Shown in pieces: positions 874 through 27,699 of a stretch of DNA of 64,000 nucleotides (positions are counted from its first letter, which is position 1; each line of letters begins with the position of its first letter). A model generated the notes under the pieces. It saw only the letters and a program-made list of their open reading frames with translations. It had not been told where the DNA came from and did not search any database. The position numbers and the translations under genes are program-made. Source of the stretch: Myxococcota bacterium (GTDB lineage Bacteria; Myxococcota_A; Bradymonadia; UBA7976; UBA1532); NCBI GenBank assembly GCA_036337435.1, contig JAYZEG010000011.1, forward strand, positions 1 to 64,000, written 5' to 3'.

Positions 874-3078
874 TTATCGGAGTCCATCGACCGTGAGCGT
901 GTATGAATCGAAGCATGCATGTGATTGGGCTACACCCTTGACTCTGATCACGAAAGTGCCATTGTCATCGACGAGTAAGTCTTCATCCCAGTGTATTTCC
1001 TCATCGCCATTGGATGGATTGACACTCTGATCCAGTGCATTTTCCAGTTGGCAGTCTTCGATTGAACGATACAGATAGACATTGTAGTTGTTGCCATTGG
1101 GGATGCCAGTGAGGCTGATTTCGAAGTCCTCCCGAAAGCCGGGTATACTCAAGCCGTCACTTGTCACGACACAGTAGTGATCGACATCACCGACGTGGTC
1201 AATGCTTGCGCGTATCGTTAAATTCTCGACATCCGGGATCACCTCTCCGTTGGCTTCAAACCCGTTTAAGAACGTACAGCTTGCACAGACATCATTGGCT
1301 CTCTCTACGTCGTAGCGGTCGGGGTTTCTCCGATCGTCGCCATCGCAATCCTCGTCGAGCGCGTTGCCACAAATTTCTTGTCGTGGGCCGATCTCATCGC
1401 GACAAGGACCAAACTCATTCCAGCGACATTGGGCATCACAGGTGCGAGTTTCAACACCAGGTGTACATTCACCGACGTTTTGCCCGCAGGCGCGTTCTTC
1501 GATATTGCCCGGCGCGCAGGCCCCACCATCGTTACACGCGCTCCAATCATCCCAAATACATTGGTCACCGCAGCGCCTTGATTGGCGCCCACAAAAACCA
1601 CACTCGCGTTCCTCAACAGCGCCGGGGGCGCATTGTCCGCCTGGACTACACTCCCCATACTCTTGCCATTGACATTGGTCGTTACAGGTTCGAATCCGAA
1701 CGGAACAGCTGGCGTCGCATGCGTCAGCTTCCTCAGCATTTGGACTGCAAACGCCTTCGCCTTCGCAGGCCGACCACTCAGACCAGCTGCAACAATCCGT
1801 ACACGTCCGTGTCCGGGTACCACAGTTGCCGCACGATTCAGTTTCAACGGTGCCCGGTGCAGGACAGGCGGTCGGACCAGCTTGGCTGCAATCCGTTATC
1901 CACTCACATTTGTTATTACACTGGGCTTGGAGCTCCAAGCATTCGCCTTGGTCTGATGGTCGGGTTGTTCCGGGCTCGCATTCGCCTTCGTCCGAGCAGG
2001 GCTGCCAATCTCCCCAGCGACATTCCGCTGCGCAGCGCCGCGTTTGTGTGCCGCATGCACCGCATGTGCCCCGCTCTTCTTCTCCCGGCATACACTGTGC
2101 TTCACCCTCGTCGCAGACACCCCACTCTGCCCACATTCCCCCACGGCATTCTCGTTGCCGAATGCCACAGCGCCCACAAACTTGACTGTCAACACCCTCA
2201 GCATCGGAACAGGCGCAGTTCTCGGGTGCCGTACAGTCCGCCCAGTTGCCCATGGTGCAGGTCTCGATTCCGCCCCCGCACGCATTGTTGCAACTTCGAA
2301 CCGTTTCTTCGTCACTGATACCGTCGCAGTCATTATCCTCGGCATCGCATAATTCGTCGCTGGGCGGTGTTGCCGTACAATTACCCCAATTGCGTCCGTT
2401 GCACGTTTCTATACCGGGACAAAACTCATTGCCGCACGGCCGGGTGTCGCCATCCTGGCAATCGGCGCAGGCTTCATCGATCTGCGCGTCACAATCATCA
2501 TCGATGCCATTGCCACAAACCTCGGGGTGGACCCGCGGTGCATCACAGAACCGCCACTGATTTCCAGCACAGATCTCTTGACCGACACCGCATTCAGTCA
2601 TGCAGTCCCGTTGAGTTCCGTCAACACAACCTTGACATTGTTCATCGATAGACTGGTCACAGTCATTATCCCGTCCATCACCACAGATCTCAGTAACGGC
2701 CTGTGGGCAGGGGCGCCAAACGCCGCCATCGCAGATTTGATTACCTCCACACCCGTTATCGCAGGGGCGCTCGTCGCCATCAGTGCATTGGTTAGCAAAA
2801 CATTCTCCGTCGACACAGCGCCCGTTGGGACAATCGGTGTTGGTCGAGCAGCGGTCCTCGATTGGCTGGCAGCGATTGTCGACAAAACGTTGGCCTGGTG
2901 GACAGGTCCCTCCATCGTTGAACACGATGACGCACGTGCCATCGATGCAACGATGATTACTCGTTGGGCAGTCGCTCGTAAATGTGCAGCGCGCACTGAC
3001 CGTCGAGTCTCCACTCGCGCAGCTTGTAAAGACGCCGAGTCCGCAAAGAATCAAAAATATATGTCGTGTATTGGCCAT
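874..3078 (-). CDS. Cys-rich repeat lipoprotein: MopE-like CDxxDNDCD repeats, TSR-like WxxWxxC repeats, C-terminal PPC-like beta-sandwich
   Basis: Start moved from 3249 to ATG 3078 (MANTRHIFLILCGLGVFTSC, lipobox FTSC). EICGDGRDNDCDQSIDE-type repeats; about 7 CxPG..CGxCG..RxC..CxWxxWxxC units; C-terminal GDVDHY...SYTLTV. Confidence 0.85.
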   Translation of the reverse strand: MANTRHIFLILCGLGVFTSCASGDSTVSARCTFTSDCPTSNHRCIDGTCVIVFNDGGTCPPGQRFVDNRCQPIEDRCSTNTDCPNGRCVDGECFANQCTDGDERPCDNGCGGNQICDGGVWRPCPQAVTEICGDGRDNDCDQSIDEQCQGCVDGTQRDCMTECGVGQEICAGNQWRFCDAPRVHPEVCGNGIDDDCDAQIDEACADCQDGDTRPCGNEFCPGIETCNGRNWGNCTATPPSDELCDAEDNDCDGISDEETVRSCNNACGGGIETCTMGNWADCTAPENCACSDAEGVDSQVCGRCGIRQRECRGGMWAEWGVCDEGEAQCMPGEEERGTCGACGTQTRRCAAECRWGDWQPCSDEGECEPGTTRPSDQGECLELQAQCNNKCEWITDCSQAGPTACPAPGTVETESCGNCGTRTRTCTDCCSWSEWSACEGEGVCSPNAEEADACDASCSVRIRTCNDQCQWQEYGECSPGGQCAPGAVEERECGFCGRQSRRCGDQCIWDDWSACNDGGACAPGNIEERACGQNVGECTPGVETRTCDAQCRWNEFGPCRDEIGPRQEICGNALDEDCDGDDRRNPDRYDVERANDVCASCTFLNGFEANGEVIPDVENLTIRASIDHVGDVDHYCVVTSDGLSIPGFREDFEISLTGIPNGNNYNVYLYRSIEDCQLENALDQSVNPSNGDEEIHWDEDLLVDDNGTFVIRVKGVAQSHACFDSYTLTVDGLR

Positions 3079-3290
3079 GGTACGATATAGATGCCTGAAG
3101 TGGGCGGATCGAAGCAAAGAATATTTGTCTCTCTGCTCTGGTCGAATTAAGTTCTTTCCGATTACATTGTTATTTAGACAACGCTCGAGACTATAGCCTG
3201 GATTGAATCGTTTCGCGATAATCTTCCGCCGAACTTGGTCTCCATGCATACTCCCCCTGGTTGAACCGAGGACGAGTCACGAAGGCACTC

Positions 3291-5381
3291 ATGGGACTAT
3301 CGCTACCAAAATTGCTGATTTGCCTCCTCATGATGCTTCTATCGTGGTCGCCGACATGTGTTGTTATGGCGCAAGCTTCAATGGACTCAGACCCGCAGTC
3401 TAACCAGGACAGTATGGCTCTTCCGACGGTGCACCTGTCCAGTGTGCCACCGACGCCCAGAGGCCTTGAGAATTTAACAACCGGGATTCGTTTCGGTGGT
3501 GCTCATCTGAGTTTAGCTCAATCGAAAAGCAATCCAAATATCCTTTATCTCGGGACTCAGCATGGCCGTGTCAACATCTCCCGAGATGGTGGGCGAACAT
3601 GGTCTGAATCGACCATTCTTACCAGTCGAGGTCGTTTTTTTGGGTCCATTCGGCCCAGTGGCTCAATGACGGGCATTTTGGATCGCTGGTTGTCCCCTAA
3701 ACCTGTCTCGCTGGGCCGCCTGTCCGGCGTCAGATTGCCGAGTCGCCTGACCAATCTCGATGCAAACAGCGGCGATACCCTCGGCGTGCGGACGGGAAGC
3801 GACTTAAACCCAGGCGACCCACTGGTCGGTGATTTAACAGGTCTTGAGTCTGCCAAAAATTCAAATGCCAGCGGCGCCCTACAAGAACTCCAGACGCAGC
3901 TTTTCCTACCCGTTGATGGCGGAGGGAGCGGTGGAGGGGCAGGGGGAGGCAACTCCCTTGCTGTCGGTTTGCGATCGGGTGCACCCTGGCTCGCGTACCA
4001 GGTTCGCCGCAAACGGAACTGGGCCGTGGGGATCAGCCTTAAGCAGAGTCTTGTACTCAAGGGCAGCTCTGGGACCAATATTCGGCACTTGGATATACAC
4101 CCATCGAACCCAGATCTCGTTCTGGCTGCCACCGATGATGGTCTTCGACTGTCGACCGATGGTGGGTTCTCATGGCCGCTGGTGTTGTCTGGCGTGTCCA
4201 GTAGAGAACGCCAAATGAATCATGTTCTTCGGTCCCGCTATGATTCAAATCTCATCTATGTTGGGTCTCGGCGCGGCTTACACGTTTCTCGCGATGGTGG
4301 TGAGAGCTTTGAACGCGCCACCCATCGATTCGTGGCTCGCAGTGACATCAGATGGATTGAGGAGCACTCGGCAAATCCCAACATCATCTACGTGGGTGCC
4401 GATTGGGGGCTACTCCGGACCGACAACGGTGGGCGAGACTACAAACTGGTTCATCGAAGCCCATGGCCGACATTGAGCCTGGTGCGGCAAGTCCGTGTCG
4501 AGCCTGCGTCTCCAGAGCGGGTTTGGCTCGCCACGGCTGATGGACTTTTAGTGAGTCGAGATAATGGCTTTAGCTTCGAGCGCAATGGGCGAGGCTTTTT
4601 TACGGGGAAGGACATTAAGCGAATCTCTTTCGGAATGGAGCCAGGTCACGTCATTGTGGCGACGATTCGCGACCTGTGGGAAACCCGCGACGCTGGTGAG
4701 ACATGGCAGGTTGCTTACTTTGGAGCGATACAGTGGGACGTTCGAACGATGATCGCTGATCGCAGTCGAGCCAACAGCGTGCTGATTGCAACGACCGCAG
4801 AGGTTTTGCGATTTGGCCCGAAAGCCAACAGGCCAATCGATGGAGATGACTTGATCGCATACCGTCGTCAGATCGCGTCCGAACCAGATGAGATCGAGGT
4901 TCTCCACAAGGCACTGAAGCGAGCTGGTTTGTTTCGACCTCAGCTGGTGAAATACCGGAAAAATTCGCGATTGATGGGCTTACTGCCGGATCTGGTCGGC
5001 GCATTGCGTTGGGCTCAGTACGATACGGATAGGGCTTTTTCAAACCAGCTCTATCAGCTCGAGCCAATCAATTTGCGCGGGGGGGCGAGCCAGCCGTTTA
5101 TGGGGGTGGTGTTCGCGTCTTGGAATCTTGCCAAATTAGTTTTCACGTCTCGTGAGAGCATCGGTCGACGAATCGGTCGTATGAATCGGTATGGCGAGGA
5201 AAAACTAACATACACTGTGATTACGCTCTTACAAGAGCGGCGCCGTTTGCAGTTCGACTCATTTGTATCGCCGGGGTCTCCGCGGGCTCAGCTGCTTCGC
5301 AACCTACGGCTTGAAGAATTAACCGCGCATATTAATGCGTTGGCTGGTAATGTCTATCCGCCTGTAGAGGCACTCAAATAA
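3291..5381 (+). CDS. Secreted Asp-box (BNR/VPS10-like) beta-propeller fused to a C-terminal single OEP/TolC-like repeat
   Basis: Signal-like N-terminus from ATG 3291 (ORF track starts at TTG 3261). Repeated SxDGGxxW/F motifs (SRDGGRTW, STDGGFSW, SRDGGESF, TDNGGRDY, SRDNGFSF, TRDAGETW). C-terminal ~165 aa is paralogous to the next gene. Confidence 0.8.
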   Translation: MGLSLPKLLICLLMMLLSWSPTCVVMAQASMDSDPQSNQDSMALPTVHLSSVPPTPRGLENLTTGIRFGGAHLSLAQSKSNPNILYLGTQHGRVNISRDGGRTWSESTILTSRGRFFGSIRPSGSMTGILDRWLSPKPVSLGRLSGVRLPSRLTNLDANSGDTLGVRTGSDLNPGDPLVGDLTGLESAKNSNASGALQELQTQLFLPVDGGGSGGGAGGGNSLAVGLRSGAPWLAYQVRRKRNWAVGISLKQSLVLKGSSGTNIRHLDIHPSNPDLVLAATDDGLRLSTDGGFSWPLVLSGVSSRERQMNHVLRSRYDSNLIYVGSRRGLHVSRDGGESFERATHRFVARSDIRWIEEHSANPNIIYVGADWGLLRTDNGGRDYKLVHRSPWPTLSLVRQVRVEPASPERVWLATADGLLVSRDNGFSFERNGRGFFTGKDIKRISFGMEPGHVIVATIRDLWETRDAGETWQVAYFGAIQWDVRTMIADRSRANSVLIATTAEVLRFGPKANRPIDGDDLIAYRRQIASEPDEIEVLHKALKRAGLFRPQLVKYRKNSRLMGLLPDLVGALRWAQYDTDRAFSNQLYQLEPINLRGGASQPFMGVVFASWNLAKLVFTSRESIGRRIGRMNRYGEEKLTYTVITLLQERRRLQFDSFVSPGSPRAQLLRNLRLEELTAHINALAGNVYPPVEALK

Positions 5382-5391
5382 TGGAGACCCA

Positions 5392-6078
5392 ATGAATACT
5401 GGTCGTTTGATAGCTATCATCCTCTGCCTGGGGTGCTCACTTCCATTGGCATTCGCCCAGCGCGGACTCAGTCCTGAAGTTCAATCGGAACTTCAGGCAT
5501 TGCGTAAGCGAGAACCGACGGTGCAAGAAGCGCAGCGCGCGGCACTGAGTTTTTTCAATATTGACGCCAGGTCTGTGCAAGCGATGCGGAGTCGGGCATC
5601 GGTTAAAGGCCTCATGCCGCAAGTGGAGGCTCGATATCGGCAGAATCGGTCCAACCTAGGCGTTGATACCCGCAATACAACCATTCAGGATGATCCTTTC
5701 TTATTTGATGCTGTCGACGGGACCGTTCATGAGTTCCAAGTTGGACTTCGCTTTAATCTGCCATCTCTGGTTTTTAACTCGGAAGTCCTCGATGTCGGCT
5801 CGCTCGCCATTTTACAAGAAGGTGTTTTGAAAGAGGTGACCCGGCTCTACTATACCCGGCGTCGCCTGCAAATCGACTTGCTCTTAAACCCGCCACGGGA
5901 TGCTGCGACACTGATGTCTAAGCAATTGAGAATTGATGAATTGACATCAACACTTGATGCCATGACCGGTGAATTATTTACGCGCGCTGCGCGACGATAC
6001 GAGCGTCGCAGTCCTCAAATCCGAGGCGATGAGCGCGATGACGGCGATGTTTTCCGTCCTTTGACTCCGCGCCGTTAA
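5392..6078 (+). CDS. Secreted protein with a single OEP/TolC-like repeat
   Basis: Signal peptide ending AFA-Q; GGAG RBS. Pattern helix-'GLMPQV'-strand-loop-strand 'LRFNL'-long helices 'VTRLYYTRRRLQ...IDELTSTLDAMTG'. The CDS is clear; the TolC-like fold is inference. Confidence 0.75.
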   Translation: MNTGRLIAIILCLGCSLPLAFAQRGLSPEVQSELQALRKREPTVQEAQRAALSFFNIDARSVQAMRSRASVKGLMPQVEARYRQNRSNLGVDTRNTTIQDDPFLFDAVDGTVHEFQVGLRFNLPSLVFNSEVLDVGSLAILQEGVLKEVTRLYYTRRRLQIDLLLNPPRDAATLMSKQLRIDELTSTLDAMTGELFTRAARRYERRSPQIRGDERDDGDVFRPLTPRR

Positions 6079-6557
6079 TGAGTGATCGCGAGTACATTAG
6101 CGAGCTGGGTTTTCAAAAACTCACCGGTGAGGTTGAGCATTTGCTAACCGTGGAACGACCGCGTGTTGTCAACCAAGTTGCGGCGGCCGCAGCTGAGGGC
6201 GATCGCAGTGAGAACGCCGAGTACATTTACGGCAAAAAACGGCTCCGCGAGATCGACAAACGTGTCGAGTTCTTGTCGAAGCGGCTCGATATACTGGAGG
6301 TTGTTCCTCAACCCAAGGGCGACGACAAAGCACGATTGTTGTCTTGGGTTCACGTCGAAGACGAGGATGGTGATGTAAAGGTCTTTAGAGTTGTGGGTGC
6401 CGATGAAACCGATGCAAAACAAAATTGGATTTCATGGAAATCTCCGGTTGGCCGGTCCCTGCTCGGCAAGTCCGTGGATGACGAAGTGAGCATCAAGACA
6501 CCTGGTGGTACCGTGGTCTACCTGGTGGTTGATATCACCAATAGCCCAGCCGACTAG
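6078..6557 (+). CDS. greB: Transcription elongation factor GreB
   Basis: AAAEGDRSENAEYIYGKKRLREIDKR signature; C-terminal ISWKSPVGRSLLGK. Confidence 0.95.
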   Translation: MSDREYISELGFQKLTGEVEHLLTVERPRVVNQVAAAAAEGDRSENAEYIYGKKRLREIDKRVEFLSKRLDILEVVPQPKGDDKARLLSWVHVEDEDGDVKVFRVVGADETDAKQNWISWKSPVGRSLLGKSVDDEVSIKTPGGTVVYLVVDITNSPAD

Positions 6558-15867: not shown

Positions 15868-16904
15868 TTTTTCTCCATTAACGACCCGGTACGAACATCT
15901 GCTTTAAAGTGAGTTTGGCGTAAATCGCAGATCCTGAATGCATCCGTCAAGTGATCAAGATCAGAGGTGTCAGGTAGACCGGTCATACGGGCCAGATGTC
16001 TGATCACCATGGCCGGTTCAATACCAACGTCTCGAATCTCTTCAATGGCCGTCGAGCCATCCCGTTTGGACAAACGTTCTCCGGTTGCTGACAGAACTAA
16101 ACCGACGTGTCCATATTGTGGCTCGGGTAGCTTCAACAAGCGGATCACCAGCAGTTGGCGGGCCGTCGACGGCAGGAGGTCATTGCCCCTCAATACTTGG
16201 GTGCACCCCATCGCGATATCGTCCCAGGCACATGCGATTTGATAGGCCGCGACGCCATCGACTCGACGAACGACAAAATCGCCTATCGAACCCTCTAAAT
16301 CGAATGATTGCGGACCCGCAACGGTGTCGTTAAAGGCCATGGTTGGCGTGTCGAGAAGCTCGATTGCCCGCCGTACGTCCAGCCTGAGTGCCGGGGTTCG
16401 TCCATTTTTCTTCGGGAGGTTGTCTAGATTTTTCAGAGGGCCGATGTGCGACGGTCTACAGGTCCCCGCATAAATGGGTCCCTCATCGCTTGCATGAGGT
16501 GCAATGGCCGCTTGTCGGACCTCTTTCCTGGAACACCAACAGGGGTATAGACATCCGAGGCGATTGAGTTTGTCTAAAATGACATCGTATTGCGAGAAGC
16601 GCTCCGATTGCCGGTAAGGCCCAACAGGACCACCGACTCTCGGACATTCATCATAGGTCAGTCCAAGCCAATCGAGATCATCATATATCCCCTCTAAGCA
16701 ACCTTTTGGAATGGCTTTCGGGTCTAGGTCTTCTATACGAAGAATGGTCCTCAGATTTTCCGACTGTGCACCCAGCCAAGCGAGAAACGCTGTCCGAGCA
16801 TTGCCCAAATGAAGACGTCCCGTCGGTGTTGGAGCAAATCGGCCAGCGCCGATTCTCGGCGTATTCAAAATGAGCGTTGATGACATAATCGAATCAAACG
16901 TCAA
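15864..16904 (-). CDS. gluQ: Glutamyl-Q tRNA(Asp) synthetase
   Basis: GRFAPTPTGRLHLGN, LRIEDLD, YPCWCSRK, GDFVVRR, RGNDLL, LSKR; no anticodon-binding domain (346 aa). Confidence 0.92.
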   Translation of the reverse strand: MTFDSIMSSTLILNTPRIGAGRFAPTPTGRLHLGNARTAFLAWLGAQSENLRTILRIEDLDPKAIPKGCLEGIYDDLDWLGLTYDECPRVGGPVGPYRQSERFSQYDVILDKLNRLGCLYPCWCSRKEVRQAAIAPHASDEGPIYAGTCRPSHIGPLKNLDNLPKKNGRTPALRLDVRRAIELLDTPTMAFNDTVAGPQSFDLEGSIGDFVVRRVDGVAAYQIACAWDDIAMGCTQVLRGNDLLPSTARQLLVIRLLKLPEPQYGHVGLVLSATGERLSKRDGSTAIEEIRDVGIEPAMVIRHLARMTGLPDTSDLDHLTDAFRICDLRQTHFKADVRTGSLMEKK

Positions 16905-17941
16905 GGTGCCTTGGATGGCTGTTGAGGCTGGGTTTTCGGTGGGTCTTTAGGCCACTGGTCTCTTGGTAGGGGCCAGCCTTGTGCCGGTGCGCCCTTTTCG
17001 ATTTTACTGCGATCGATCAGATCATCGGCTTTGGTCTTCAATACAGCTGACGCGTTAAACTTATGGATCAGCGCAACAAAATCTTTGCCCTCAGCCTTTA
17101 GGTACACATAACGATCTGTCTCAGCACCCACGGCATAGCTAACCGAGCCCGAGGGTCCCTTTAAGAAAACCGTTGCGCGGGCATTCTGTCCTAAGCCGTA
17201 CTCTGGTTTCAGTTCACGGCCAGCCGGTAGATTGAGTTTAATTGTCTGAGCGGCTCGGACTAGGGACCGGACTCGAGCAAGGTCGATGACCACATCGGGC
17301 GGCAACTGTGCCACAGACCATGTCCCGTCTTCATTTTGCTGTGCATCGATGGCCCCATGTTGGTTTAAAATCCTCATCTCGGTCGCACCCTCAAGGCGGA
17401 CATAATCGGTATCCGCGTAGTCATCGATTTGATGACTTAAGTTCCAAGCCTGGACGCCGCGCGCGAGATACACTTCGTCTTGTCCATCGTACCTCGCGTG
17501 CATCGACTGACCTTTCGCATTCCCTGCGTAAATCACCGTGTTTTGGCCAGCCTTGGTCTTCAATCTGATCTGCTTGTCATAGCTTTGCACGCCGACTTGC
17601 AAAGCGTTGTGGTTTTCGGGTTTGGTTGCGACCGGGCGTCTGATCTTGGCGAGGGTCAGACGGCCGAGCATGTCATTGACCTTCCCCGAGTCCAGTGGGA
17701 AATTCTCGGCCGCCGGAAGCACCCAACCCATGTCTCCACGGCGCATTGTGACGCTGGCACCATCATCGGTTTTCAACTCCCCGGGCATACGCGAGATGGT
17801 GATTTCGATCACGTCCTCAGGCGAAAAGTCGAGGAGGGTTCTTGTCTCGACTTCAATCACGCGTTTAGACGACCAGGTGTAACCAGCGACGCCCACTTGC
17901 AGCAGGAGCAAGACCAAGAGATTTCGGTTCACGGATTTCAT
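16901..17941 (-). CDS. DUF4340 domain protein (Gld-like ABC accessory)
   Basis: N-terminal TM; two internal repeats; typical position downstream of a GldG-like gene; ATGA coupling. Confidence 0.75.
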   Translation of the reverse strand: MKSVNRNLLVLLLLQVGVAGYTWSSKRVIEVETRTLLDFSPEDVIEITISRMPGELKTDDGASVTMRRGDMGWVLPAAENFPLDSGKVNDMLGRLTLAKIRRPVATKPENHNALQVGVQSYDKQIRLKTKAGQNTVIYAGNAKGQSMHARYDGQDEVYLARGVQAWNLSHQIDDYADTDYVRLEGATEMRILNQHGAIDAQQNEDGTWSVAQLPPDVVIDLARVRSLVRAAQTIKLNLPAGRELKPEYGLGQNARATVFLKGPSGSVSYAVGAETDRYVYLKAEGKDFVALIHKFNASAVLKTKADDLIDRSKIEKGAPAQGWPLPRDQWPKDPPKTQPQQPSKAP

Positions 17942-20862
17942 GATGCCTCCTCGGGATTTGCTTCCAACGGGATCGGCCGAATCATGTTTCGACGTGTCAT
18001 TGCTATCAAGAGGACGACAATCAACGCGAGGAGAACCACGATATAATTACCGAGTTCCCAGCGGGACTTCTCGTCGGGTTGCATCGACTTCAGTGTCCGG
18101 GCAAAGGCACCCGCTGATCGGATCGAGAGAAGGTCGGTATTTTGAAGTGCCCAGTCGATGGAGTTTCGGACGAACAGTGGGTTGCCCCTGAATGCGCCGC
18201 CTGTCATCTGTCGAGCTAACTCAGCCGCCAAATCCGATGCCATTTCCGATGACCCCAGAACGATCAACCTGGCGTCAGCAGGGGAGGTTTGAATGGTATG
18301 TCCTGGCTGGTCCAAAGCTCGGACGCCATTACTCCCTGAAGACAGTGGAGACGGCCGATTCTGAAAGTGGCTGTTGAAGGTGCCGACCAGACTGACAGAG
18401 ATGGGTTTGGGGCCAATCTCCGCATCTGGCGGTGGGCCAAACCCCTTTTCGGGAAACGCTCGAAAATCTGGATCTAAGCGCGTATCGATTCTCAGCCATG
18501 ATTCCGCTGAAGACCATGCAAGGTAATCCGCATCGATGCCTTCGACTTTTTCGATAATGGGCAAGCCCCGTTTATCCAGTTTGGGTTTCCCGTCTTTGTC
18601 GACGGGGGCTCTCAACGTGACGGGGGAAGACCAGAGCGCAGCCAAATTAGGTAGACCCTTCATAATGATGCTATCGGCGCTAAAACCGTCCTGTCTGATG
18701 GCCGGAAAAAACGGATAGGGCATGTATTCGATCGAGTTCATTTGGCTTCGACCGCGACGCTTCGGAACGGGAAGTGGAAAGGGTAGATTTCTCGGGTCCA
18801 TGACAAACCCATCGGTGATTTCTACGCCGTACGTCTTGAGAAGGTCGAAGACAGTGTCGTCGACTCGTTTTGTTTGCAGGCTCCCGTTCTCAAATCGAAT
18901 TTGATACATCCCGGTCATGAAGATGACTTTGCCACCACGCATAAGATATTGGTCAACGGCGTACTGATGTTTGGGTGTTAGAACCGGCGGTTTAGCCACG
19001 ATAAGAACATCGATATCAGCGGGTACGACTCCATCTTTAATATCCAAATGTCTGACCTCAAATTCACGGCTGAGTTCAGCTTGAAGCCCCTGGTAGTCGC
19101 GTTGATCTGGCTTTTTCGGTAGGCCTGGAATGCTCGGTGTGCGGTCGATTTGAACGTGGGTCACAATCCCAACGGTCTTCATAAATCCAGGCACCATCCG
19201 ACGGGCACCGGACTCAATTAAGTTCTGTACTTCGGCCTTACCCAATTCACCTTGCGGGATGATGGGAAAAGCTTTAGAGCCACTTTGGACCAAGAGTTGT
19301 AACCAAAACTTCTTCTTTGAAAAGGGATCGCTGGACATGGGTCTAAACCCGTATTCTTTCTCCAGGCGCTTGGCCAATGGAGCGTCTCGCGATGGATCGA
19401 CCATGCGGTAGGTCACTCGACCACCACTCCGAACACTCACATCCTTGGCTGCTTTGGCAATAAGGTCCGGAATCTTAATGAGCTCTCTCGGCAGGTTTGC
19501 CGGACTGATATAGCCTGTGATTTGAATGCGTGTATCCGTTGTCGCAAGAACGGACTCAAGGCTCATGAAACCCTGAGATACAGCTCGGATAGACCGAGTC
19601 ATGTCGTATTCGAGATTGCGCAGACGAACGCTCACTTCTGTGTCATCAGCATGAAATTCAATCAGGTCCGAGAAAGACAAAACCTTATATTCATCACCAT
19701 ACTGAACCAAGATGTGGAAGTAGGAATTGACGATAGATTGTTCATTTCGACCCTTAATCTTAAACGGAACACTCCGAATCCCAAATCGCTCATTGATCTC
19801 CGCCTGTAAGTCTTCATCGCTCGTCGGGTTGACGAAAGACAGTTGAACGATCCCTTCGCCCCTGACTTCATATTCTCTTAAAAAATCACGGATTCTTGGA
19901 ATCAGTGGTGCAAGCATCGGGTGGGTCTTTGAGAAATAACCAGTGATGGTCAGCGGTTCTTTCAAATCCCCTAAAATTTCAGTGGTTGTCTCACTGATGG
20001 TATATTCTTGCGCTTCTGTTAGATCGAGACGGGCACTCGTCACGGGTGCCAGCCACAGATTACCGGCGACCACGTTTAAACCGGTGAGGACAATTCCGAA
20101 TCGCAACGACGACCCGCGGCTTTCTTTATCCTTCGGTTGACCGTCCATCCGCTTCGATTCGAGGAAATAGGTATTGAGAACCAGAAAGAACACGGTGAGA
20201 CTGGCGTAGTAAAAGAAGTCTCGAAAATCGAGAACGCCTCGCTCGATACTCTCGAAGCGACTCCCTGTTCCGATCCCTCGCAAGATCTCCCCAACCTGGG
20301 TTCCGAAGAAATCTACAAACACACTGGCACCAACGAGGTACAGCGCTCCTCCGATCAAGAGGGTCACCATCAACGCAACAATTTGGTTGTCTGTTCGGGC
20401 ACTTACGCAGAGCCCGATAGCCATGTAGGTCGATGCAAGCAACAATGCTGCTACGTACCCACCTAGAACAGGACCCCAATCCAATGACCCAAGCTGCGCT
20501 ACGGTCAAAGGCAGGGGAAGGGTCAAGACCAAAGCCAAAGTGACCAGGAGCATCCCAGCGATAAACTTGCCGAGCACCAGGTCTCTGGTGCGCATCGGGA
20601 GCGTGAGTAGAATCTCCAGGGTGCCAAGCTTCTGCTCTTCACTCCACTGCTTCATCGTGATGGCGGATACCAAGAAAATCAGCAGGATGGGCAGCCAGCT
20701 AAAGAGCGGTCTCACATCGGCTAGGTTACGCGCGAAAAACTTTGCGAAGGTAAAGAAGATGCAGACCGTGGCACCCAAGAAAATACCCAGAAAAATGAGG
20801 GCCACTGGCGACAGGAAGTATGCGCTCAGCTCCTTACGTACAATGACTTTGACCGACTTCAT
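17938..20862 (-). CDS. Fused GldF-like ABC permease + GldG-like (ABC_transp_aux) protein
   Basis: KELSAYFLSP, EEQKLGTLEILLTLP, RLDLTEAQEYTISETT, DQYLMRGG, RNSIDWAL...LLSIRS. Confidence 0.9.
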   Translation of the reverse strand: MKSVKVIVRKELSAYFLSPVALIFLGIFLGATVCIFFTFAKFFARNLADVRPLFSWLPILLIFLVSAITMKQWSEEQKLGTLEILLTLPMRTRDLVLGKFIAGMLLVTLALVLTLPLPLTVAQLGSLDWGPVLGGYVAALLLASTYMAIGLCVSARTDNQIVALMVTLLIGGALYLVGASVFVDFFGTQVGEILRGIGTGSRFESIERGVLDFRDFFYYASLTVFFLVLNTYFLESKRMDGQPKDKESRGSSLRFGIVLTGLNVVAGNLWLAPVTSARLDLTEAQEYTISETTTEILGDLKEPLTITGYFSKTHPMLAPLIPRIRDFLREYEVRGEGIVQLSFVNPTSDEDLQAEINERFGIRSVPFKIKGRNEQSIVNSYFHILVQYGDEYKVLSFSDLIEFHADDTEVSVRLRNLEYDMTRSIRAVSQGFMSLESVLATTDTRIQITGYISPANLPRELIKIPDLIAKAAKDVSVRSGGRVTYRMVDPSRDAPLAKRLEKEYGFRPMSSDPFSKKKFWLQLLVQSGSKAFPIIPQGELGKAEVQNLIESGARRMVPGFMKTVGIVTHVQIDRTPSIPGLPKKPDQRDYQGLQAELSREFEVRHLDIKDGVVPADIDVLIVAKPPVLTPKHQYAVDQYLMRGGKVIFMTGMYQIRFENGSLQTKRVDDTVFDLLKTYGVEITDGFVMDPRNLPFPLPVPKRRGRSQMNSIEYMPYPFFPAIRQDGFSADSIIMKGLPNLAALWSSPVTLRAPVDKDGKPKLDKRGLPIIEKVEGIDADYLAWSSAESWLRIDTRLDPDFRAFPEKGFGPPPDAEIGPKPISVSLVGTFNSHFQNRPSPLSSGSNGVRALDQPGHTIQTSPADARLIVLGSSEMASDLAAELARQMTGGAFRGNPLFVRNSIDWALQNTDLLSIRSAGAFARTLKSMQPDEKSRWELGNYIVVLLALIVVLLIAMTRRNMIRPIPLEANPEEAS

Positions 20863-21809
20863 TGCGCATCCTCACCGCTGCTCTTCTCTTGAGCATGTTG
20901 AAACATCAAATCCCTGAAAACCTGCTCTAAGCTGGGTGTCTCAGACCTGAGTTCCAGGAGGGGCCAGCCCGCCTGGTTAATCGCTTGGGCAATACCTGGT
21001 ATGGCATGCTTGGGGTCGTCGCACTCGATCCGCCAGAAGGAGCCATCCGATCTCCGTTGGGCGTTATGGATACCACTCACACCATCGACCGATTCAAGTG
21101 CTGACCGGGGGTCTACATCATCGGCTAAGCCCAAGGTGACCACCGAATTTGTCAGCAAGCTCTCAAGTGAAGAGTCGGCGGCGAGATGACCATCGATGAG
21201 GATGACGACTCGATTACAGACCGCTTCTATTTCCGACAGAATGTGGGTGGATAAAATGACAGTGGTTGTCTCCGCTAATCGTCTGATCAAAGACCTGATT
21301 TCCAAGATTTGGACAGGGTCAAGTCCGTTCGTGGGCTCATCCAAGACCAAAACGTCCGGTTTATGAAGAATGGCTTGGGCGAGGCCCACTCTCTGCCTGT
21401 ATCCTTTCGATAGCGTGCCGATCGGCTGTAGTAGACGCTCCTGAAGGCCGGTTGCCTTGACGGCCTCGGCAACGGCTGAAACTTGTATTGCGGTGTCAAG
21501 TCCCCTGAATTGAGCCATCATTAGCAAATACTCTTGAACAAGCATTTCTCGATAGAGCGGGGCGCTTTCCGGCATATATCCAATTTGTCTCTGAACCCCG
21601 ATTCGGTCGTCCAAGACATCGATGCCACCCACAGAAATTGAGCCTGATGTCGGTTCCAGAAAACCGGTCATGATCTTCATAACCGTGGTTTTGCCCGCAC
21701 CGTTATGACCAAGAAGACCAACAATTTCCCCCCGTTTGACGTCGAATGAGACGTCGGCGACAGCTTTCAAGTCTCCATAATGTTTGACCAGATTTTTGAT
21801 TGAAATCAC
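20859..21809 (-). CDS. GldA-like ABC transporter ATP-binding protein
   Basis: GTG start at 21809 with GAGG RBS. Walker A GHNGAGKTT, LSKGYRQRV, LVLDEPTNGLDP, STH. Confidence 0.93.
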   Translation of the reverse strand: MISIKNLVKHYGDLKAVADVSFDVKRGEIVGLLGHNGAGKTTVMKIMTGFLEPTSGSISVGGIDVLDDRIGVQRQIGYMPESAPLYREMLVQEYLLMMAQFRGLDTAIQVSAVAEAVKATGLQERLLQPIGTLSKGYRQRVGLAQAILHKPDVLVLDEPTNGLDPVQILEIRSLIRRLAETTTVILSTHILSEIEAVCNRVVILIDGHLAADSSLESLLTNSVVTLGLADDVDPRSALESVDGVSGIHNAQRRSDGSFWRIECDDPKHAIPGIAQAINQAGWPLLELRSETPSLEQVFRDLMFQHAQEKSSGEDAQ

Positions 21810-21964
21810 GTTTGTGAACCTCTTTCTGCGCTGCTTGTGTTTGTTAAAAAGCAACCTGCGCACTCGTTAGAGTATGCCCACGGTGCGGTGGAGACACAAT
21901 TTTACAGCGACTTATGTTCTAAAACGGGACTGAAACTACTACATCGCTTTGAAAAAATGCACTC

Positions 21965-21987
21965 TTTGTGGTCACATGCACCACAAA
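21965..21987. promoter_or_regulatory. Inverted repeat, putative operator between divergent genes
   Basis: TTTGTGGT-N7-ACCACAAA, perfect 8-bp arms, 41 nt upstream of ATG 22029. Confidence 0.4.
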
Positions 21988-22028
21988 TGCGGATGTCTTG
22001 TTTGGGAAGTTTTGGGGAACACGCTGCT

Positions 22029-25000
22029 ATGAAAATAATGAATGGCTCCTTTTTGATGCTCAGTATCGCAGCGTGCTTTTTGTTCGCTTGTGGCTCAAAC
22101 AACGGCAATTCCGGTGGGGCTGATGGCAGCGTTGGGTCTCTGGTTCCCGAATGTCGTGACGGTGAAGATAATGATCGCGATGGTGTCATCGATCATCCGG
22201 CTGACCCTGGTTGCATGAGCCCGGATGACACAGACGAGACAGATGAGCGCGCGCCGCAGTGCACTGATGGCCTTGATAACGACGAAGATGGCGACATTGA
22301 TCTCAATGATCGCGGGTGCGACAGTCGGGATGACGATGATGAAAGCGATGAAGTGCCCCTCTCTCAATGCCGTAACGGCATAGACGATGATGAAGACGGG
22401 GACATTGACTTAGCTGACGACGGTTGTGCAAATTCAGCAGACGATGATGAATCGGATGAACCTCAACCAAGCCAATGTTCGGATGGCCTGGACAACGACA
22501 ACGACGGCTATATTGACTTTCCCGCCGATCCGGGTTGTGGCTCGGCATTCGATTCAGATGAAACTGACGACAACCGTGTCTTGCCCCAGTGCGCAGATGA
22601 ACGAGACAATGACGGAGATGGCCTGTTCGATCTAGCCGACCCTGGTTGCAGCAGCGTGGCCGATCCGAGAGAACAGAACACCGACGAACAGCCAGCGTGT
22701 AGCAATGGTCTGGATGACGATGGGGACGGTCTCGTTGATTTCCCATTGGAACCTGGTTGCAGTGCAGCAGGTGACGACGATGAACAAGACGGTGCCCGGC
22801 AGCCTGGATGCGGTAATGGTCTTGATGACGATAACGATGGTGAAATTGACTATCCACTCGACCCAGGATGCATGGGAATCGGAGACATGGACGAAACGGA
22901 CCCGACCACAGCGACGGCGTGCTCAGACAACTTAGATAATGACCGCGATGGCATGATCGATTACCCCGCGGATCCGGGTTGTATCAGTCGTGCAGATCGA
23001 AATGAACAAGCACAATGCACAGCACGGATAAACGCTGTTGAAGTGCGTGCAGGTCAAATATACCGCGGAGACTCAGGGGCAGGTCAATTCAACTTCGAAG
23101 GCTCTTGTGGTGGCCGCGGTGCAGCCGAACTGGTGTTCTATTATCGCTTAACGACTCAAGTTGAGGCTCTCGAAATAACAACTGAATTACCAGAGAACGA
23201 GCTCGAGACAGCACTCTACATCCGCCGTAACTGTGCGGATGAAGCCACTGAATTGGTCTGTCAGCGCGAAGTGCTAAACGACGGAGTGGCAGCCAATTCA
23301 TTGAGATTGGAGGAACCGATTCCAGGGGACTATTACATTTTTGTAGACGGTGCCACCGGGCAGAACGGTGCATTCGCAGTGCAAGTCAACGAGGTGCCCT
23401 TGGCTCAATGCCGGAATGGCATCGATGATGACGAGGATGGTCGGACGGATTATCCTGTCGATGCTGGCTGCCTTTCCTTATCAGACCGGGACGAGACAGA
23501 CCCCGATCAACGACCAGCCTGTTTCGATGGCGCGGACAACGACGCAGATGGCCTGACGGATTACCCCCTCGATATTGGATGTCGGGCAGCGAGTGATGAC
23601 GATGAGACGGATTCGTGCGGGCAGGGGGTCGCGTTCGAAGATTTCCCGTCTGATGAATTGTTTGTCGATGGCAATACCGATGGTGGGACGAATCAATTTC
23701 AGGGTGGCTGTGGTGGTAACAATCGGGTTGAGCGCGTTTTCCGATATGTAAATCGCTTCAACGCGAATCTCACCTTCAGCGTCAACAATGAAGAGACCAT
23801 TCCAAATACTCTGGTGTATGCACGCACGGCGTGTGCGTCGGCCCAGTCAGAACTGGCCTGCGATGCTGGTGATAGACAGAATCCTAAGGGGACCATCGAA
23901 TTAACGAATGTTGCCCCAGGCGAGGTGTTTATTTTTGTCGATACAGGCATTGGAATTGGCGGTGCCTTCAGATTGACCGTTGACATCGAGCGGTTGCCAC
24001 CGGGCTGCTCGGACAACCGAGACAACGATGGCGATGGGTCTATCGATCAAGACGATGTTGGATGCAGCGGTCCCGAGGACGAGGATGAAGCCGATGGTGA
24101 CGTTGCGCCCGCTTGCGCTGATGGTGTCGACAATGACGGTGATGGCCTCATCGACTTTCCACTTGAATTAGGGTGTTCGTATCGTGGTGGTGACTCAGAA
24201 GATGACCCCATGATTGTTCCTGCATGTGGCGATGGATTGGACAATGATGATGACGGTGTGACCGATTTTCCAGAAGAACCCGGTTGTGTTAGCCGCGGAG
24301 ATACCGACGAAGCCAATCAAGGCAGACCCCAGTGCAATAATCGAATCGATGATGATGAAGATGGCCTGACAGATTATCCACTTGACCCCGGTTGCGGCGG
24401 GGTCGGTGATTTGAGTGAAGGCGACCCGCCTACGCCACCTCAATGCGCAGACGAAGTCGACAATGACAGGAACGGGTTGGTTGATTTCCCATTCGATCCA
24501 GGTTGTCGGGCAGCCGGTGACTCAATCGAAGAACCTGCCGATATGCCAGCCGCATGCAGTGATGAGATAGACAATGATGACGACGGCATCATCGACTTTC
24601 CGCGGGAACCCGGTTGTGCTTCGGCGGGCGATACCGATGAGACTGACCCAGCCTTTCCAACCCAGTGTTCCGATGGTCGAGACAATGACAATAATGGGCG
24701 TATTGATTGGCCTGATGACCCAGGGTGTCGATTTGCAGCCGATACTCGAGAACAACTGCAGGGTAATCCACCTAAGCGTTGTGCTGACGGTGTCGACAAT
24801 GATGACGATGGATTGATCGACCTGGCGGATTCTGGTTGTCAGAATGCACGGGATAATGATGAGTCCGATGTCTTCGTCGACAATCACTGCAGTGATGGCG
24901 TTGACAATGATGGCGATGGTTTAGTCGATTGGCCCATCGATGATGGTTGTGAAGCGCAAGGCGCGCAGTGTGAGCAGCTCGGGCACGGCATCTGCGACGG

Positions 25001-25580
25001 TGAATGCCGCGACCTCATCAATGATGCCAACCACTGCGGCGCCTGCGGCCGCGTCTGCGAGGACGGTGTTGAATGTATCGACGGTTTTTGTGGTGGGCTT
25101 TACGTATTCGAAGGGATACAGCAAAACATCGCTGATGACATCTTGGGCGGATGGGAGACATGTCACAACGACCTCTACGGCGACCGCAATACCATGGTCC
25201 AGCAGATCTTAGACAACTGTAATGGTGCGTATGTGATGTTGGGTTGCAGACCGGTCGGTTCACCGACTTGGCAATTGATCGCGATGGGTGAACGAAATAG
25301 CGTGTTCACCAACACCGGCGACCGTGGGAATAATCTTAATAGCCACAATGGTGTGGACTGGTATTTTAGCACCGGCTACTCCATCGGATTTGTCGCGCCC
25401 AATTCAGGTGTATCCAGAAACTCCTGTGATACCGCGCGCAATGAATCAGAGTTCCGACTTTGCTGGCATACCAGCGGTGGACGGTTGAATGGCGGATACC
25501 GCTGTGGCGCGCGCACGGGATTGAATGGCTCTAGAGACTATGAGCGCAGGGTTTGGACCAGTGCAGCCGGGCAACCCTGA
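22029..25580 (+). CDS. Large Asp/Cys-rich repeat surface lipoprotein
   Basis: Start moved to ATG 22029 (lipobox LFAC). 19 CxDGxDNDxDGxxD(xP)xDPGC units in blocks of 8, 2 and 9, separated by two beta-sandwich domains. Then CDGECRDLINDANHCGACGRVC (MXAN_6577/Stig1-like) and a ~155-aa globular C-terminal domain. Confidence 0.88.
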   Translation: MKIMNGSFLMLSIAACFLFACGSNNGNSGGADGSVGSLVPECRDGEDNDRDGVIDHPADPGCMSPDDTDETDERAPQCTDGLDNDEDGDIDLNDRGCDSRDDDDESDEVPLSQCRNGIDDDEDGDIDLADDGCANSADDDESDEPQPSQCSDGLDNDNDGYIDFPADPGCGSAFDSDETDDNRVLPQCADERDNDGDGLFDLADPGCSSVADPREQNTDEQPACSNGLDDDGDGLVDFPLEPGCSAAGDDDEQDGARQPGCGNGLDDDNDGEIDYPLDPGCMGIGDMDETDPTTATACSDNLDNDRDGMIDYPADPGCISRADRNEQAQCTARINAVEVRAGQIYRGDSGAGQFNFEGSCGGRGAAELVFYYRLTTQVEALEITTELPENELETALYIRRNCADEATELVCQREVLNDGVAANSLRLEEPIPGDYYIFVDGATGQNGAFAVQVNEVPLAQCRNGIDDDEDGRTDYPVDAGCLSLSDRDETDPDQRPACFDGADNDADGLTDYPLDIGCRAASDDDETDSCGQGVAFEDFPSDELFVDGNTDGGTNQFQGGCGGNNRVERVFRYVNRFNANLTFSVNNEETIPNTLVYARTACASAQSELACDAGDRQNPKGTIELTNVAPGEVFIFVDTGIGIGGAFRLTVDIERLPPGCSDNRDNDGDGSIDQDDVGCSGPEDEDEADGDVAPACADGVDNDGDGLIDFPLELGCSYRGGDSEDDPMIVPACGDGLDNDDDGVTDFPEEPGCVSRGDTDEANQGRPQCNNRIDDDEDGLTDYPLDPGCGGVGDLSEGDPPTPPQCADEVDNDRNGLVDFPFDPGCRAAGDSIEEPADMPAACSDEIDNDDDGIIDFPREPGCASAGDTDETDPAFPTQCSDGRDNDNNGRIDWPDDPGCRFAADTREQLQGNPPKRCADGVDNDDDGLIDLADSGCQNARDNDESDVFVDNHCSDGVDNDGDGLVDWPIDDGCEAQGAQCEQLGHGICDGECRDLINDANHCGACGRVCEDGVECIDGFCGGLYVFEGIQQNIADDILGGWETCHNDLYGDRNTMVQQILDNCNGAYVMLGCRPVGSPTWQLIAMGERNSVFTNTGDRGNNLNSHNGVDWYFSTGYSIGFVAPNSGVSRNSCDTARNESEFRLCWHTSGGRLNGGYRCGARTGLNGSRDYERRVWTSAAGQP

Positions 25581-25635
25581 ACACGGACCTCAGCCGAGTT
25601 GCGGAGTTTTGCCCAGCTGGCTATTCTAATCGCAT

Positions 25636-27621
25636 ATGAAACCTTTTTTCGTCCTGGCTGCATTAACCCTCATTTTTGGGTGTGAAAGCGGTCCAATTGA
25701 GCCCACGCCTTTTGGCTTTGTTGAGCCGCCCGAACCCGTTCGTTCAACTGAAGCCAGGGACGAACCAACCATGGGAACACTCAATGAGAGTGCCCTCAGC
25801 GAGAGACAGATTCTTTTTGAGCAGGCTCCTGGGCAATTCCACAGCCCAGCCCAAACACGGGTGATGGGCAGCTTTCAAAGGGGCCTGGACCTCCAGGACC
25901 AAAGCCCATTTCTCGGGTCGGAGTACCGGCGAACAATTTTGACCGATGAAATTCTGGTGGGTCTTGACTGCGCTGAGACCGGGTGTATCGCAGCGTCTCG
26001 AAGCGGAGGTCTTTTTCGGACAGACACCTATGGTGATTGGCGCGCGATGCCGTCGAATTTGCCCGCACTGAAGCGCTTTTACATCGGTGTGGATGCATGG
26101 ATCGCCTGTCCTCTGTCCGGACGGAAGGCTCTGTTGAGTCAAGATAGAGGCCAGACTTGGTTACTGGCTGATTTTCACTGCTCCCGATACACGGCGAAAA
26201 CGGTGGTCAATACACCTGAAATCACAGCCGTTCTTGACGGCGACCGTTTGCGACTTGGCGGTTTTTTTGATGACTTGATTCGCTGGATACCTGCGCCTGT
26301 TGAACAGCCAGAATGTCTCTTTGTCGGGGCGGGTGCTTTGGTTGTTGTCGGCCGGTCGCATGTGGCAGTTTCAACTGACGGGGGACGCACTTATGAGACG
26401 TCCCCGAAGGCTTTTGAACTCGCACCTGTGCGCGACGGAGTGGTGACGGATAAAGGAGGAATCGTCGTCGTTGGTGATGCCCCCGCTGGTCAATCACCCG
26501 TCGCGATGAGCCATGATTTCGGAGCGTCGTGGGTCAGGCCACCATCTTGGCCCGGCCGCGATCCTCGCGCTGACTTTATTGCTCGGGCGAGAGACGGTCG
26601 TTTTGCAGTCAGCAAAGCCTTCGGGCGAGCGCACGTCTTCGTTGGCGACCCGCTCGGTGTCTACTGGAGTGAGATGGCCGCCCGTGAGTCGTCCCTCGGA
26701 CCCATCGCTCCATATCGCTCTGGATTCCTAGTCAGTACGACCCGCGGCATCGCGGTGAGTCCATCTCAGAGGGGCGTTTATCGCCTCGGTCTCGATCAAC
26801 CCATTCGAGACCTTGTGGCGATTTCGCAACATGAATACATTGGTGTTGGTGCTTATGGCGGGGTCTATCGGTCTCATGACCGTGGCTTGACTTGGTACCC
26901 AGCAGGGCCGGGTCATTCGTTGCCCTTCACTCACATTCTTCACTTAGAGGGACAGCGCTTGGTTGCTGCGGGTGCTGGGCTGATTGGTCAGAGCGACGAT
27001 GGGGGCGTGACCTGGTCTCTTCATTCGACAGAAAACGGCTGTTCGGCTGATTGGTTGGTTGGCGGGCCTGAGAGTCATTTTGTCGGCTGTGCCGATGGAA
27101 CCGTTCTGGGCCGGCGTACCCACCATGGAGGCTGGCGTCTTCTGAGCACGCCATGGGCTGTTAATTCGACGCAGGGTGTTTGGTTGCCCGATTCAGAAAG
27201 CCTAGTCTTGATGAACGTCGATACGGACCATTTGCTGAAGTCGACAGATCACGGTTACACATGGACCGAGGTCGAGTTGGATGCTGGAGAACCCATAAGA
27301 GCGCTCGATGCGGTGGGGGAAACGTTAAGTTTACGAACGGCCAGTGGGCGCCTTGCATGGACGGTAAACGGCACGCCACAATGGCAATGGCTCAGTTCGG
27401 AACGTGCTTTACTGGGGAATGCCCTGGCACATCGACGATTCAATGACGGTCGCTGGCTTGTCCTAGATGAGAGCACTCTCTGGCGTATTGAAGCCGGTCT
27501 GCAATTGGATGCCATAAGCGACTCTGCCAACGCCACCGGTCTCAAGCTTCTCAAATCGGGAGATATCGTTTTGTTGAGTCCCCAATCCACCACGTTATTG
27601 AGCCGGGTCAGCGGTCATTGA
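25636..27621 (+). CDS. Asp-box/BNR (Ycf48-like) beta-propeller lipoprotein
   Basis: Lipobox IFGC; SQDRGQTW, STDGGRTY, SHDFGASW, SHDRGLTW, SDDGGVTW, STDHGYTW. Confidence 0.85.
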   Translation: MKPFFVLAALTLIFGCESGPIEPTPFGFVEPPEPVRSTEARDEPTMGTLNESALSERQILFEQAPGQFHSPAQTRVMGSFQRGLDLQDQSPFLGSEYRRTILTDEILVGLDCAETGCIAASRSGGLFRTDTYGDWRAMPSNLPALKRFYIGVDAWIACPLSGRKALLSQDRGQTWLLADFHCSRYTAKTVVNTPEITAVLDGDRLRLGGFFDDLIRWIPAPVEQPECLFVGAGALVVVGRSHVAVSTDGGRTYETSPKAFELAPVRDGVVTDKGGIVVVGDAPAGQSPVAMSHDFGASWVRPPSWPGRDPRADFIARARDGRFAVSKAFGRAHVFVGDPLGVYWSEMAARESSLGPIAPYRSGFLVSTTRGIAVSPSQRGVYRLGLDQPIRDLVAISQHEYIGVGAYGGVYRSHDRGLTWYPAGPGHSLPFTHILHLEGQRLVAAGAGLIGQSDDGGVTWSLHSTENGCSADWLVGGPESHFVGCADGTVLGRRTHHGGWRLLSTPWAVNSTQGVWLPDSESLVLMNVDTDHLLKSTDHGYTWTEVELDAGEPIRALDAVGETLSLRTASGRLAWTVNGTPQWQWLSSERALLGNALAHRRFNDGRWLVLDESTLWRIEAGLQLDAISDSANATGLKLLKSGDIVLLSPQSTTLLSRVSGH

Positions 27622-27699
27622 GCACAAAAACGAGTGGTTGGCGTGACAAGCTGCGACTTGCAGCCTATGATGAACGTGTAAACAGATTTTGGTTGCTGC

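Follow-up and report, generated by a model that had tools for sequence, protein, structure and literature searches.

Two adjacent genes near the start of a 64,000-nucleotide stretch of Myxococcota DNA (the window; positions 1 to 64,000, forward strand, of contig JAYZEG010000011.1) raise the question of whether a TolC-like barrel can be put together from chains that each carry a single repeat. The original prediction, made from the sequence alone, read the two genes, here called A and B, as a 'half-TolC' channel system in which A would be an Asp-box beta-propeller fused to one TolC-type repeat and B would be such a repeat by itself. We find that the C-terminal module of A and gene B are paralogues kept side by side as a strict pair, and that the module belongs to a large family in which it occurs once per protein. 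We tentatively propose that the pair builds a stalk that anchors or oligomerises propellers at the outer membrane, and we weigh this proposal against its alternatives below.

Gene A ends in the module that gene B encodes alone

The features of the pair on which the argument rests are as follows.

3291..5381, plus strand: gene A (open reading frame (ORF), start context, Pfam Sortilin-Vps10 and BNR matches, AlphaFold2, orthologues)
3291..3371, plus strand: putative Sec signal peptide of A (MGLSLPKLLICLL...CVVMA; read by eye from the translation)
3450..4820, plus strand: predicted Asp-box beta-propeller of A, residues ~64-520 (AlphaFold2 strands and predicted local distance difference test (pLDDT), Foldseek)
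4842..5378, plus strand: C-terminal alpha/beta module of A, residues 528-706 (AlphaFold2, paralogy with B, family hidden Markov model (HMM))
5392..6078, plus strand: gene B, an exported protein of 228 residues that consists of the module alone (ORF, homologues, AlphaFold2)

The longest ORF of A spans 3261-5381 and opens with a TTG codon at 3261, giving 706 residues, and residue numbers of A refer to this form. Translation from the ATG at 3291, which is preceded by a GAAGG motif, gives 696 residues, and the nearest relative (locus L001) has an A of 696 residues that begins at the equivalent start. Both proteins had been assigned signal peptides. By eye, both N-termini are indeed signal-like, in that a basic residue is followed by a hydrophobic stretch and an A-x-A-type site (...CVVMA followed by QA in A, ...LAFA followed by Q in B), and the pattern is kept across the B family alignment; we treat these signals as putative.

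A is an exported protein in which the putative signal peptide is followed by a Ycf48/BNR-type propeller and the C-terminal alpha/beta module. The claim of an Asp-box propeller fused into A holds: the protein matches Sortilin-Vps10 (E 2.9e-8, 33.4 bits against a cut-off of 33) and BNR (E 1.2e-5) in Pfam, as well as a BNR-type glycosylhydrolase model in NCBIfam under its cut-off. When its AlphaFold2 model (pLDDT 69.5) is searched against the PDB with Foldseek, GH74 half-propellers are found at E 4e-13 and Ycf48 at a target-normalised template modelling (TM) score of 0.72-0.74. In the model, residues ~64-520 adopt what is predicted to be a seven-bladed Asp-box propeller fold. This is the fold of Ycf48/HCF136 and of other single BNR/Asp-box seven-bladed propellers (GH74 half-domains, Reut_B4987, DAIP). 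A differs from GH74 enzymes in having one propeller where they have two, and from Ycf48-type propellers in adding both the C-terminal module and a disordered insert. It also falls outside the Ycf48 equivalog (NF010237, 17.6 bits against a cut-off of 326; PSII_BNR, 20.3 against 27). The insert, Gly-rich, ~150 residues long and of low model confidence, breaks the propeller after blade 1 (residues 121-270, nucleotides 3621-4070) and retains a conserved basic stretch with the alignment consensus GVGLRxGAPxLAxxVRxKRxWxxGIxLKQxLxLK.

The likeness between the C-terminus of A and B, first seen by eye, is borne out by formal comparison. BLASTP of A against B gives 36.6 bits and E 6e-7, with 49 of 187 positions identical (26%; A 516-699, B 19-196). 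Comparing the B family (53 sequences) with the family of A C-termini (22 sequences), hhalign returns a probability of 99.9% and E 8.4e-31 over 174 columns, and the motif pairs that had been picked out by eye sit in the alignments. The family HMM recognises the module of A at E 2.5e-35. Judged by these sequence comparisons, the C-terminal ~180 residues of A and gene B are paralogous, beyond doubt at the family level. The homologues of B (n = 250) are all unnamed.

A and B form a conserved, co-diverging pair

The sequence confirms that the two genes are 10 nucleotides apart: the TAA stop of A (5379-5381) is followed by 10 nucleotides that include GGAG, and then by the ATG of B. A survey of gene neighbourhoods, proposed earlier as a check on whether the pair is conserved, gave a clear result. 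Our profile search of genomes with B yielded 23 loci, all from metagenome-assembled genomes labelled Myxococcota, Bradymonadia, Nannocystaceae or 'Deltaproteobacteria'. In 21 loci, B is immediately preceded on its own strand by an A-type ORF with propeller and module, and in another (L011) a C-terminal fragment of A is found upstream of B at the contig edge. With one locus that begins at a contig edge left out (L017), A immediately precedes B in 22 of 22 testable loci. The family HMM picks out exactly two module-bearing ORFs per locus, on separate genes; a third copy of the module turns up neither in the window nor within 8 kb of the pair at any of the loci.

A quick IQ-TREE search with 72 modules gave a tree that has all 23 A modules on the same side of one branch (Shimodaira-Hasegawa-like approximate likelihood ratio test (SH-aLRT) 98), and the A and B subtrees repeat the same groupings: W+L001+L002+L003, L004/L005, L018/L019/L020, L012/L016 and L007/L010. 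This mirrored arrangement indicates that the duplication predates these lineages and that both copies have been retained together. Branches are markedly longer for A than for B modules, and L022_A and L023_A are themselves long branches. A and B are a conserved, co-diverging pair.

The predicted module has the element order of a TolC repeat

According to the legend of Figure 28 in PMC8277102, a TolC-family protomer is made of two structural repeats that arose by gene duplication. In this family of outer-membrane factors (OEP, PF02321; TolC, OprM, CusC), the order of elements in a repeat is an ascending helix, a Pro, a strand, a surface loop, a second strand, a long descending helix and a shorter ascending helix. 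The AlphaFold2 models of the two modules can be read in the same way. In A, helices occupy residues 528-574 and are followed by a strand (577-584), a variable loop, a second strand (613-620) and two further helices (630-669 and 674-695). In B, whose model has a pLDDT of 81, the helices at 28-74 lead into a strand (77-88), a loop, a strand (109-120) and helices at 130-165 and 171-192. The order common to both models is therefore helices, strand, a loop of ~20-28 residues, strand, a helix of 36-40 residues and a helix of 22 residues, which means that the modules of A and B share the predicted element order of one TolC repeat.

Two hairpins of B fall within this order.

5620..5751, plus strand: beta-hairpin of B, residues 77-120, after Pro76 (AlphaFold2, column statistics)
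5767..5979, plus strand: helical hairpin of B, helices 130-165 and 171-192 (family alignment, AlphaFold2)

The beta-hairpin is framed by a Pro76 that is invariant (213 of 213 sequences) and by Trp121 (W121) at the strand end, which is found in 205 of the 213. Strand 2 is amphipathic, with hydrophobic and polar residues in alternation (115, 117, 119, W121, 123), and the loop at 84-112 is polar and variable, with many indels. The helical hairpin is the best-conserved part of the family, and twelve of its positions or those just ahead of it (F128, N129, E131, D134, Q142, E143, K147, R151, Y153, R156, R158 and Q160) are invariant in 53 sequences. Helix 59-74 (16 residues) and helix 171-192 (22 residues) together come close to the length of helix 130-165 (36 residues). 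TolC likewise has short helices stacked against a long one.

A structure search had been proposed earlier for the 228-residue protein. Against 350,542 PDB chains, TolC-family channels rank first with the B model: eight of the ten top Foldseek matches are named outer-membrane-factor chains (TOprJ1, five chains of OprM, OprN and TolC), the other two (5azs, 5azp) are described just as a P. aeruginosa membrane protein, and CmeC, ST50, CusC, MtrE and VceC appear further down. The scores themselves are low and are considered with the opposing evidence below.

Profile comparison points the same way. A search for TolC homologues returned just TolC at 88% identity or above, too uniform for a diverse profile, and our TolC-family profile therefore combines E. 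coli tolC with two enterobacterial TolC sequences and 12 plasmid genes (9 annotated 'TolC family', 3 without annotation under the match). Against the merged TolC repeats, a module profile of 213 sequences aligns over 124 columns with P 1e-3 in hhalign, and with P 3e-4 and a score of 30.6 when its columns are limited to the first sequence. A profile of 62 stand-alone representatives aligns in order to TolC repeat 1 (P 0.0015), and its second alignment covers the corresponding part of repeat 2 (P 0.01). The register also agrees with the models, in that hhalign places Pro76 on the conserved Pro before TolC strand 1, and strand 2 with 'LVFN' on the strand-2 exit. In two tests with 100 block-shuffled profiles each, none reached the observed score (30.6 observed and a shuffle maximum of 28.7 in one test, 29.1 and 24.4 in the other), and in a separate run none of 30 shuffles, nor the reversed profile, did so.

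The module marks a large family with varied N-terminal domains

An exhaustive profile search collected 2042 clusters (50% identity) at E <= 1e-3, 1313 of them at E <= 1e-10. Whatever its fold, the module thus marks a large unnamed family, and a solved structure of A and B would provide annotation for thousands of envelope proteins. In the proteins that were scanned, the module is not covered by any Pfam or NCBIfam model. Source annotations place PF25852 (DUF6242_C) on many module proteins, but our Pfam scan gave no PF25852 match. An adjoining DUF6242 match in one protein (P0310, residues 26-79) suggests that PF25852 lies in the propeller. In the ESM Atlas, B finds only unnamed Myxococcota clusters and, at scores of 0.90 or below, clusters that carry HHH_3.

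We examined a sample of 259 members, made up of the best 150 of the 2042-cluster search plus Omnitrophota-type matches. As the original prediction held for A and B, there is one module copy per protein: the module is single in all 259, with no tandem case, and the one protein with two matching stretches is a split single copy. It ends within 10 residues of the C-terminus in 207 of the 259. What precedes it varies. The protein is stand-alone or has a short N-terminal part in 80 members, carries at least 250 residues ahead of the module in 166 and is intermediate in 13. When representatives were scanned, 15 of 16 long ones gave Sortilin/BNR propeller matches, and 3 of 9 short or intermediate ones had an N-terminal ComEA-like HHH_3 (ComEA E 1.6e-16). 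One long protein of 740 residues has a lamin-tail domain, a PEP-CTERM motif and a propeller ahead of the module; in P0270, P0277, P0293 and P0381 the module stands behind ComEA-like HHH (~290 residues) or lamin-tail/PEP-CTERM/propeller domains. Among the best 120 of 1178 matches, propeller fusions of ~500-560 residues come mostly from Candidatus Omnitrophota, and some of these bear the NCBI name 'YCF48-related protein'. Some family members therefore resemble ComEA-type periplasmic helix-hairpin-helix proteins in putting HHH_3 ahead of the module, whereas the pair in the window is without an HHH domain, and we know of no ComEA with such a C-terminal module.

A model for the assembly of A and B

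We propose that A and B are an obligate, Sec-exported envelope pair whose paralogous modules co-assemble into one oligomer, most simply an alternating A3B3. Six hairpins would then form a 12-stranded barrel in the outer membrane, and the helical hairpins would make up a short helical barrel in the periplasm, in which a descending helix of ~36-40 residues packs against two stacked shorter helices. The result would be a half-height alpha/beta stalk of TolC-repeat-like modules, holding three Ycf48-type propellers beneath the outer membrane as platforms for binding ligands or proteins. The module itself would be a general anchoring or oligomerising device and not the exit duct of an efflux pump. 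The fold in this model is predicted, and stoichiometry, membrane insertion, the periplasmic placement of the propeller and function are inferred.

The short helices, the varied N-terminal domains and the C-terminal position of the module fit an anchoring stalk and not an efflux duct. The gene neighbourhood is in keeping with this. It had been claimed that no exporter or membrane-fusion gene is adjacent, and none is: no HlyD, RND (resistance-nodulation-division) or OEP gene was found among 38 ORFs of the window, and HlyD, RND and ABC (ATP-binding cassette) genes neither adjoin the pair in the window nor occur among 60 flanking ORFs of 11 distant loci. Partners encoded at unlinked sites are possible. 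That A and B form an outer-membrane anchoring or oligomerising stalk of TolC-repeat-like modules, arranged as A3B3 and not serving efflux, is the explanation we tentatively prefer, although we put its chances at somewhat under even.

Co-folding lends this weak support. Three copies of A(538-706) with three of B(40-200) scored 0.34 (runs of 0.33, 0.53 and 0.34), whereas the best of three controls was 0.00. At least 83% of contacts are shared between the runs, and the partner pLDDT is at least 62. In the calibration, 116 of 157 solved complexes attained the mark, as did 2 of 215 mismatches.

A broader form of the model takes the module to be an unduplicated TolC fold. Six single-repeat chains would build a half-height outer-membrane barrel of 12 strands and 12 helices that anchors periplasmic propellers or DNA-binding ComEA-like domains beneath it in at least two phyla; within it, the assembly would be A3B3 in Myxococcota and homo-hexamers or other mixes elsewhere. 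This is possible, but we consider it on the doubtful side.

Several observations weigh against the TolC likeness and the assembly built on it. In the structure search, B has no match at E <= 0.001; the best has E 0.13, probability 0.33, a TM score of 0.20 and a root-mean-square deviation of 16 Å, and V-ATPase D subunits follow close behind at E 0.7. The predicted long helix (130-165 in B, 36 residues; 630-669 in A, 40 residues) is about half that of TolC, whose long helices have ~67 residues and whose periplasmic helical barrel measures about 100 Å; a stalk made from such helices could not span the periplasm. The loops of both monomer models are of low confidence (pLDDT 38-61), and strand 1 has ~3 alternating hydrophobic positions (78, 80, 82) before turning polar, which is thin for a membrane strand.

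Sequence methods are no kinder. Overall, hhalign gives the module just 12-40% probability against TolC (P 3e-4 to 2.5e-3), whereas the positive control, the N-half against the C-half of TolC in the same TolC-family profile, reaches E 5e-23. The top shuffle score of 28.7 is near the observed 30.6, and narrow profiles do worse (P 0.02-0.14 for the B family alone, P 0.005-0.008 for the A module). Pfam OEP (PF02321) matches 0 of 53 B-family members at E <= 10 and neither A nor B at E <= 1, and phmmer and hmmsearch against PDB sequences find no TolC-family match. An NCBIfam TolC match of P0244 (E 0.055) was dropped, as it concerns 1 of 62 members and is no better than matches to 23 unrelated families.

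Two further difficulties concern the pair itself. The co-folding score is of the weak class: scores of 0.60 or below that reach the mark account for just 18 of the 157 solved complexes and for both mismatches that passed; in addition, the job lies outside the calibration (six chains, custom alignments), and its score was returned without interface geometry. In the 72-module tree, the propeller-fused modules of Omnitrophota group with B and not with the A modules of Myxococcota, which means that A:B pairing is shown only in the Myxococcota lineage. Such a grouping could arise if propeller fusion occurred twice or if the A module diverged fast.

On balance, the identity claimed for the module is supported in part, by its element order, its Foldseek ranking and its in-order hhalign alignments, at scores that are all below the usual thresholds. 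By any accepted threshold the module is not a member of the OEP family. In our reading its architecture is like that of a TolC repeat, and a very distant relationship is possible. The likeness to TolC is suggestive but unproven.

Alternative explanations

The alternative that survives best is a soluble or peripheral hetero-oligomer in the periplasm, in which a small soluble beta-barrel or sheet would arise from the hairpins and a coiled-coil bundle, as in prefoldin or Skp, from the helices, and the propellers would be oligomerised without crossing the outer membrane. Prefoldin and Skp are 'jellyfish' oligomers, with a beta-hairpin body and long oligomerising helical hairpins, and are analogous to the module in this respect. 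The weakly hydrophobic strand 1 and the polar loop suit a soluble protein, as do the helices, where both conservation and charge are at their highest within the family. The coiled-coil-plus-hairpin V-ATPase subunit D comes near the TolC-family values in Foldseek, and OEP is not reached by any sequence method. On the other hand, the element order and the long variable loop of the module do not fit prefoldin or Skp, and neither appears among the 44 Foldseek matches listed for B, down to rank 50. The element order matches that of the TolC repeat, with the invariant Pro before strand 1, the amphipathic strand 2 and the near-invariant Trp at the strand end, and the loop resembles a surface loop. 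We regard this soluble assembly as unlikely, though a serious contender. Should the module turn out to be a soluble tail for oligomerisation, the finding reduces to a new domain of unknown function.

The TolC likeness could instead be an artefact or convergence, in which case the module would be a tail for simple dimerisation or regulation, with A and B acting 1:1 or as independent homo-oligomers. Every link to TolC is sub-threshold, a co-folding pass of this weak class is more often wrong than right without a strong prior, and most of the sampled members (166 of 259) are long propeller fusions, which may or may not have a partner. However, adjacency in 22 of 22 loci and the mirrored phylogenies favour a joint function, three independent methods converge on the same family in the same register, and the co-folding controls score 0.00. 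We find this explanation improbable.

Least credible, and in our judgement highly improbable, is a true transport duct, that is, a short TolC-like channel serving an efflux, type 1 secretion or uptake system encoded elsewhere: it shares the structural evidence for the stalk, and E. coli tolC is itself unlinked to pump genes (its K-12 neighbours are nudF and ygiB), but the predicted helical barrel has about half TolC's length and the known mode of docking periplasmic adaptors across the periplasm would be closed to it, no pump gene is close to the pair in the window or in the 11 distant loci, and three bulky propellers would crowd the periplasmic entrance.

Relation to TolC-family channels

Several features set the anchoring stalk that we prefer apart from the TolC family. 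The A/B module has one repeat per chain where TolC has two, there are two paralogous genes here and one in TolC, A carries a propeller of 450 residues, and no adaptor or pump genes are close to A and B. To our knowledge, every TolC-family channel described so far is a trimer whose chains are internally duplicated. A full-text literature search, with subscription journals outside its coverage, turned up no account of TolC-like proteins that are half-size or have a single repeat, and none of a TolC-like part combined with a propeller in myxobacteria. If the module is an unduplicated TolC fold, a natural two-gene, single-repeat version would show the TolC fold before duplication and offer a living model of the origin of TolC. 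The rules of barrel assembly could be tested with separable halves, and the pair would represent a new class of outer-membrane protein.

Neighbouring genes and other loci in the window

Conservation around the pair thins out with distance, from greA (13 of 23 loci) and a Cys-rich protein (9 of 23) to all other neighbours (at most 7 of 23).

6078..6557, plus strand: greA (Pfam GreA_GreB N- and C-terminal domains)
874..3249, minus strand: Cys-rich secreted protein or lipoprotein with MopE-type motifs, divergent from A (Pfam Cu-binding_MopE, E 5.6e-8)
16901-21863, minus strand: ABC-2 transporter cluster, 11 kb from the pair and the sole ABC system in the window

The ATG of greA overlaps the stop codon of B (TAATG, 6075-6080), and greA is found downstream of B in the loci that have it. 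We consider it probably a matter of synteny and not a part of the system. An elongation-factor gene translationally coupled to an envelope pair is odd, and may be just inherited gene order. The Cys-rich protein, which is close to the pair in its nine loci and twice lies downstream, is a possible associate and could be a ligand or cargo of the propeller; its N-terminus is lipoprotein-like when read from Met58. In two distant loci, the gene that immediately precedes A on its strand belongs to the OmpA family (peptidoglycan-binding; L012:4941-5780, L016:4501-5373). The ABC-2 cluster encodes an ATPase, a DUF4340 protein and a permease to which an ABC_transp_aux (GldG-like) domain is fused; it is not conserved together with the pair.

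Elsewhere in the window, a trio of genes at 21837-29229 (plus strand) resembles the first locus in outline, encoding a Cys-rich protein of 1247 residues, a BNR-repeat protein of 661 residues and a family-less protein of 509 residues. The 661- and 509-residue proteins are both without the module. The BNR protein at 25636-27621 was considered as a close paralogue of A and set aside (best E 0.049; no module). At 47744-56366 (plus strand), two proteins of more than 1100 residues without a Pfam match flank a 502-residue protein with a weak alginate-export-type barrel match, and these genes may be another envelope system. Finally, phage-baseplate-like genes (gp25, Baseplate_J) lie just downstream of greA in one of the other loci (L008:9787-13178), where they may represent a contractile injection system or a prophage.

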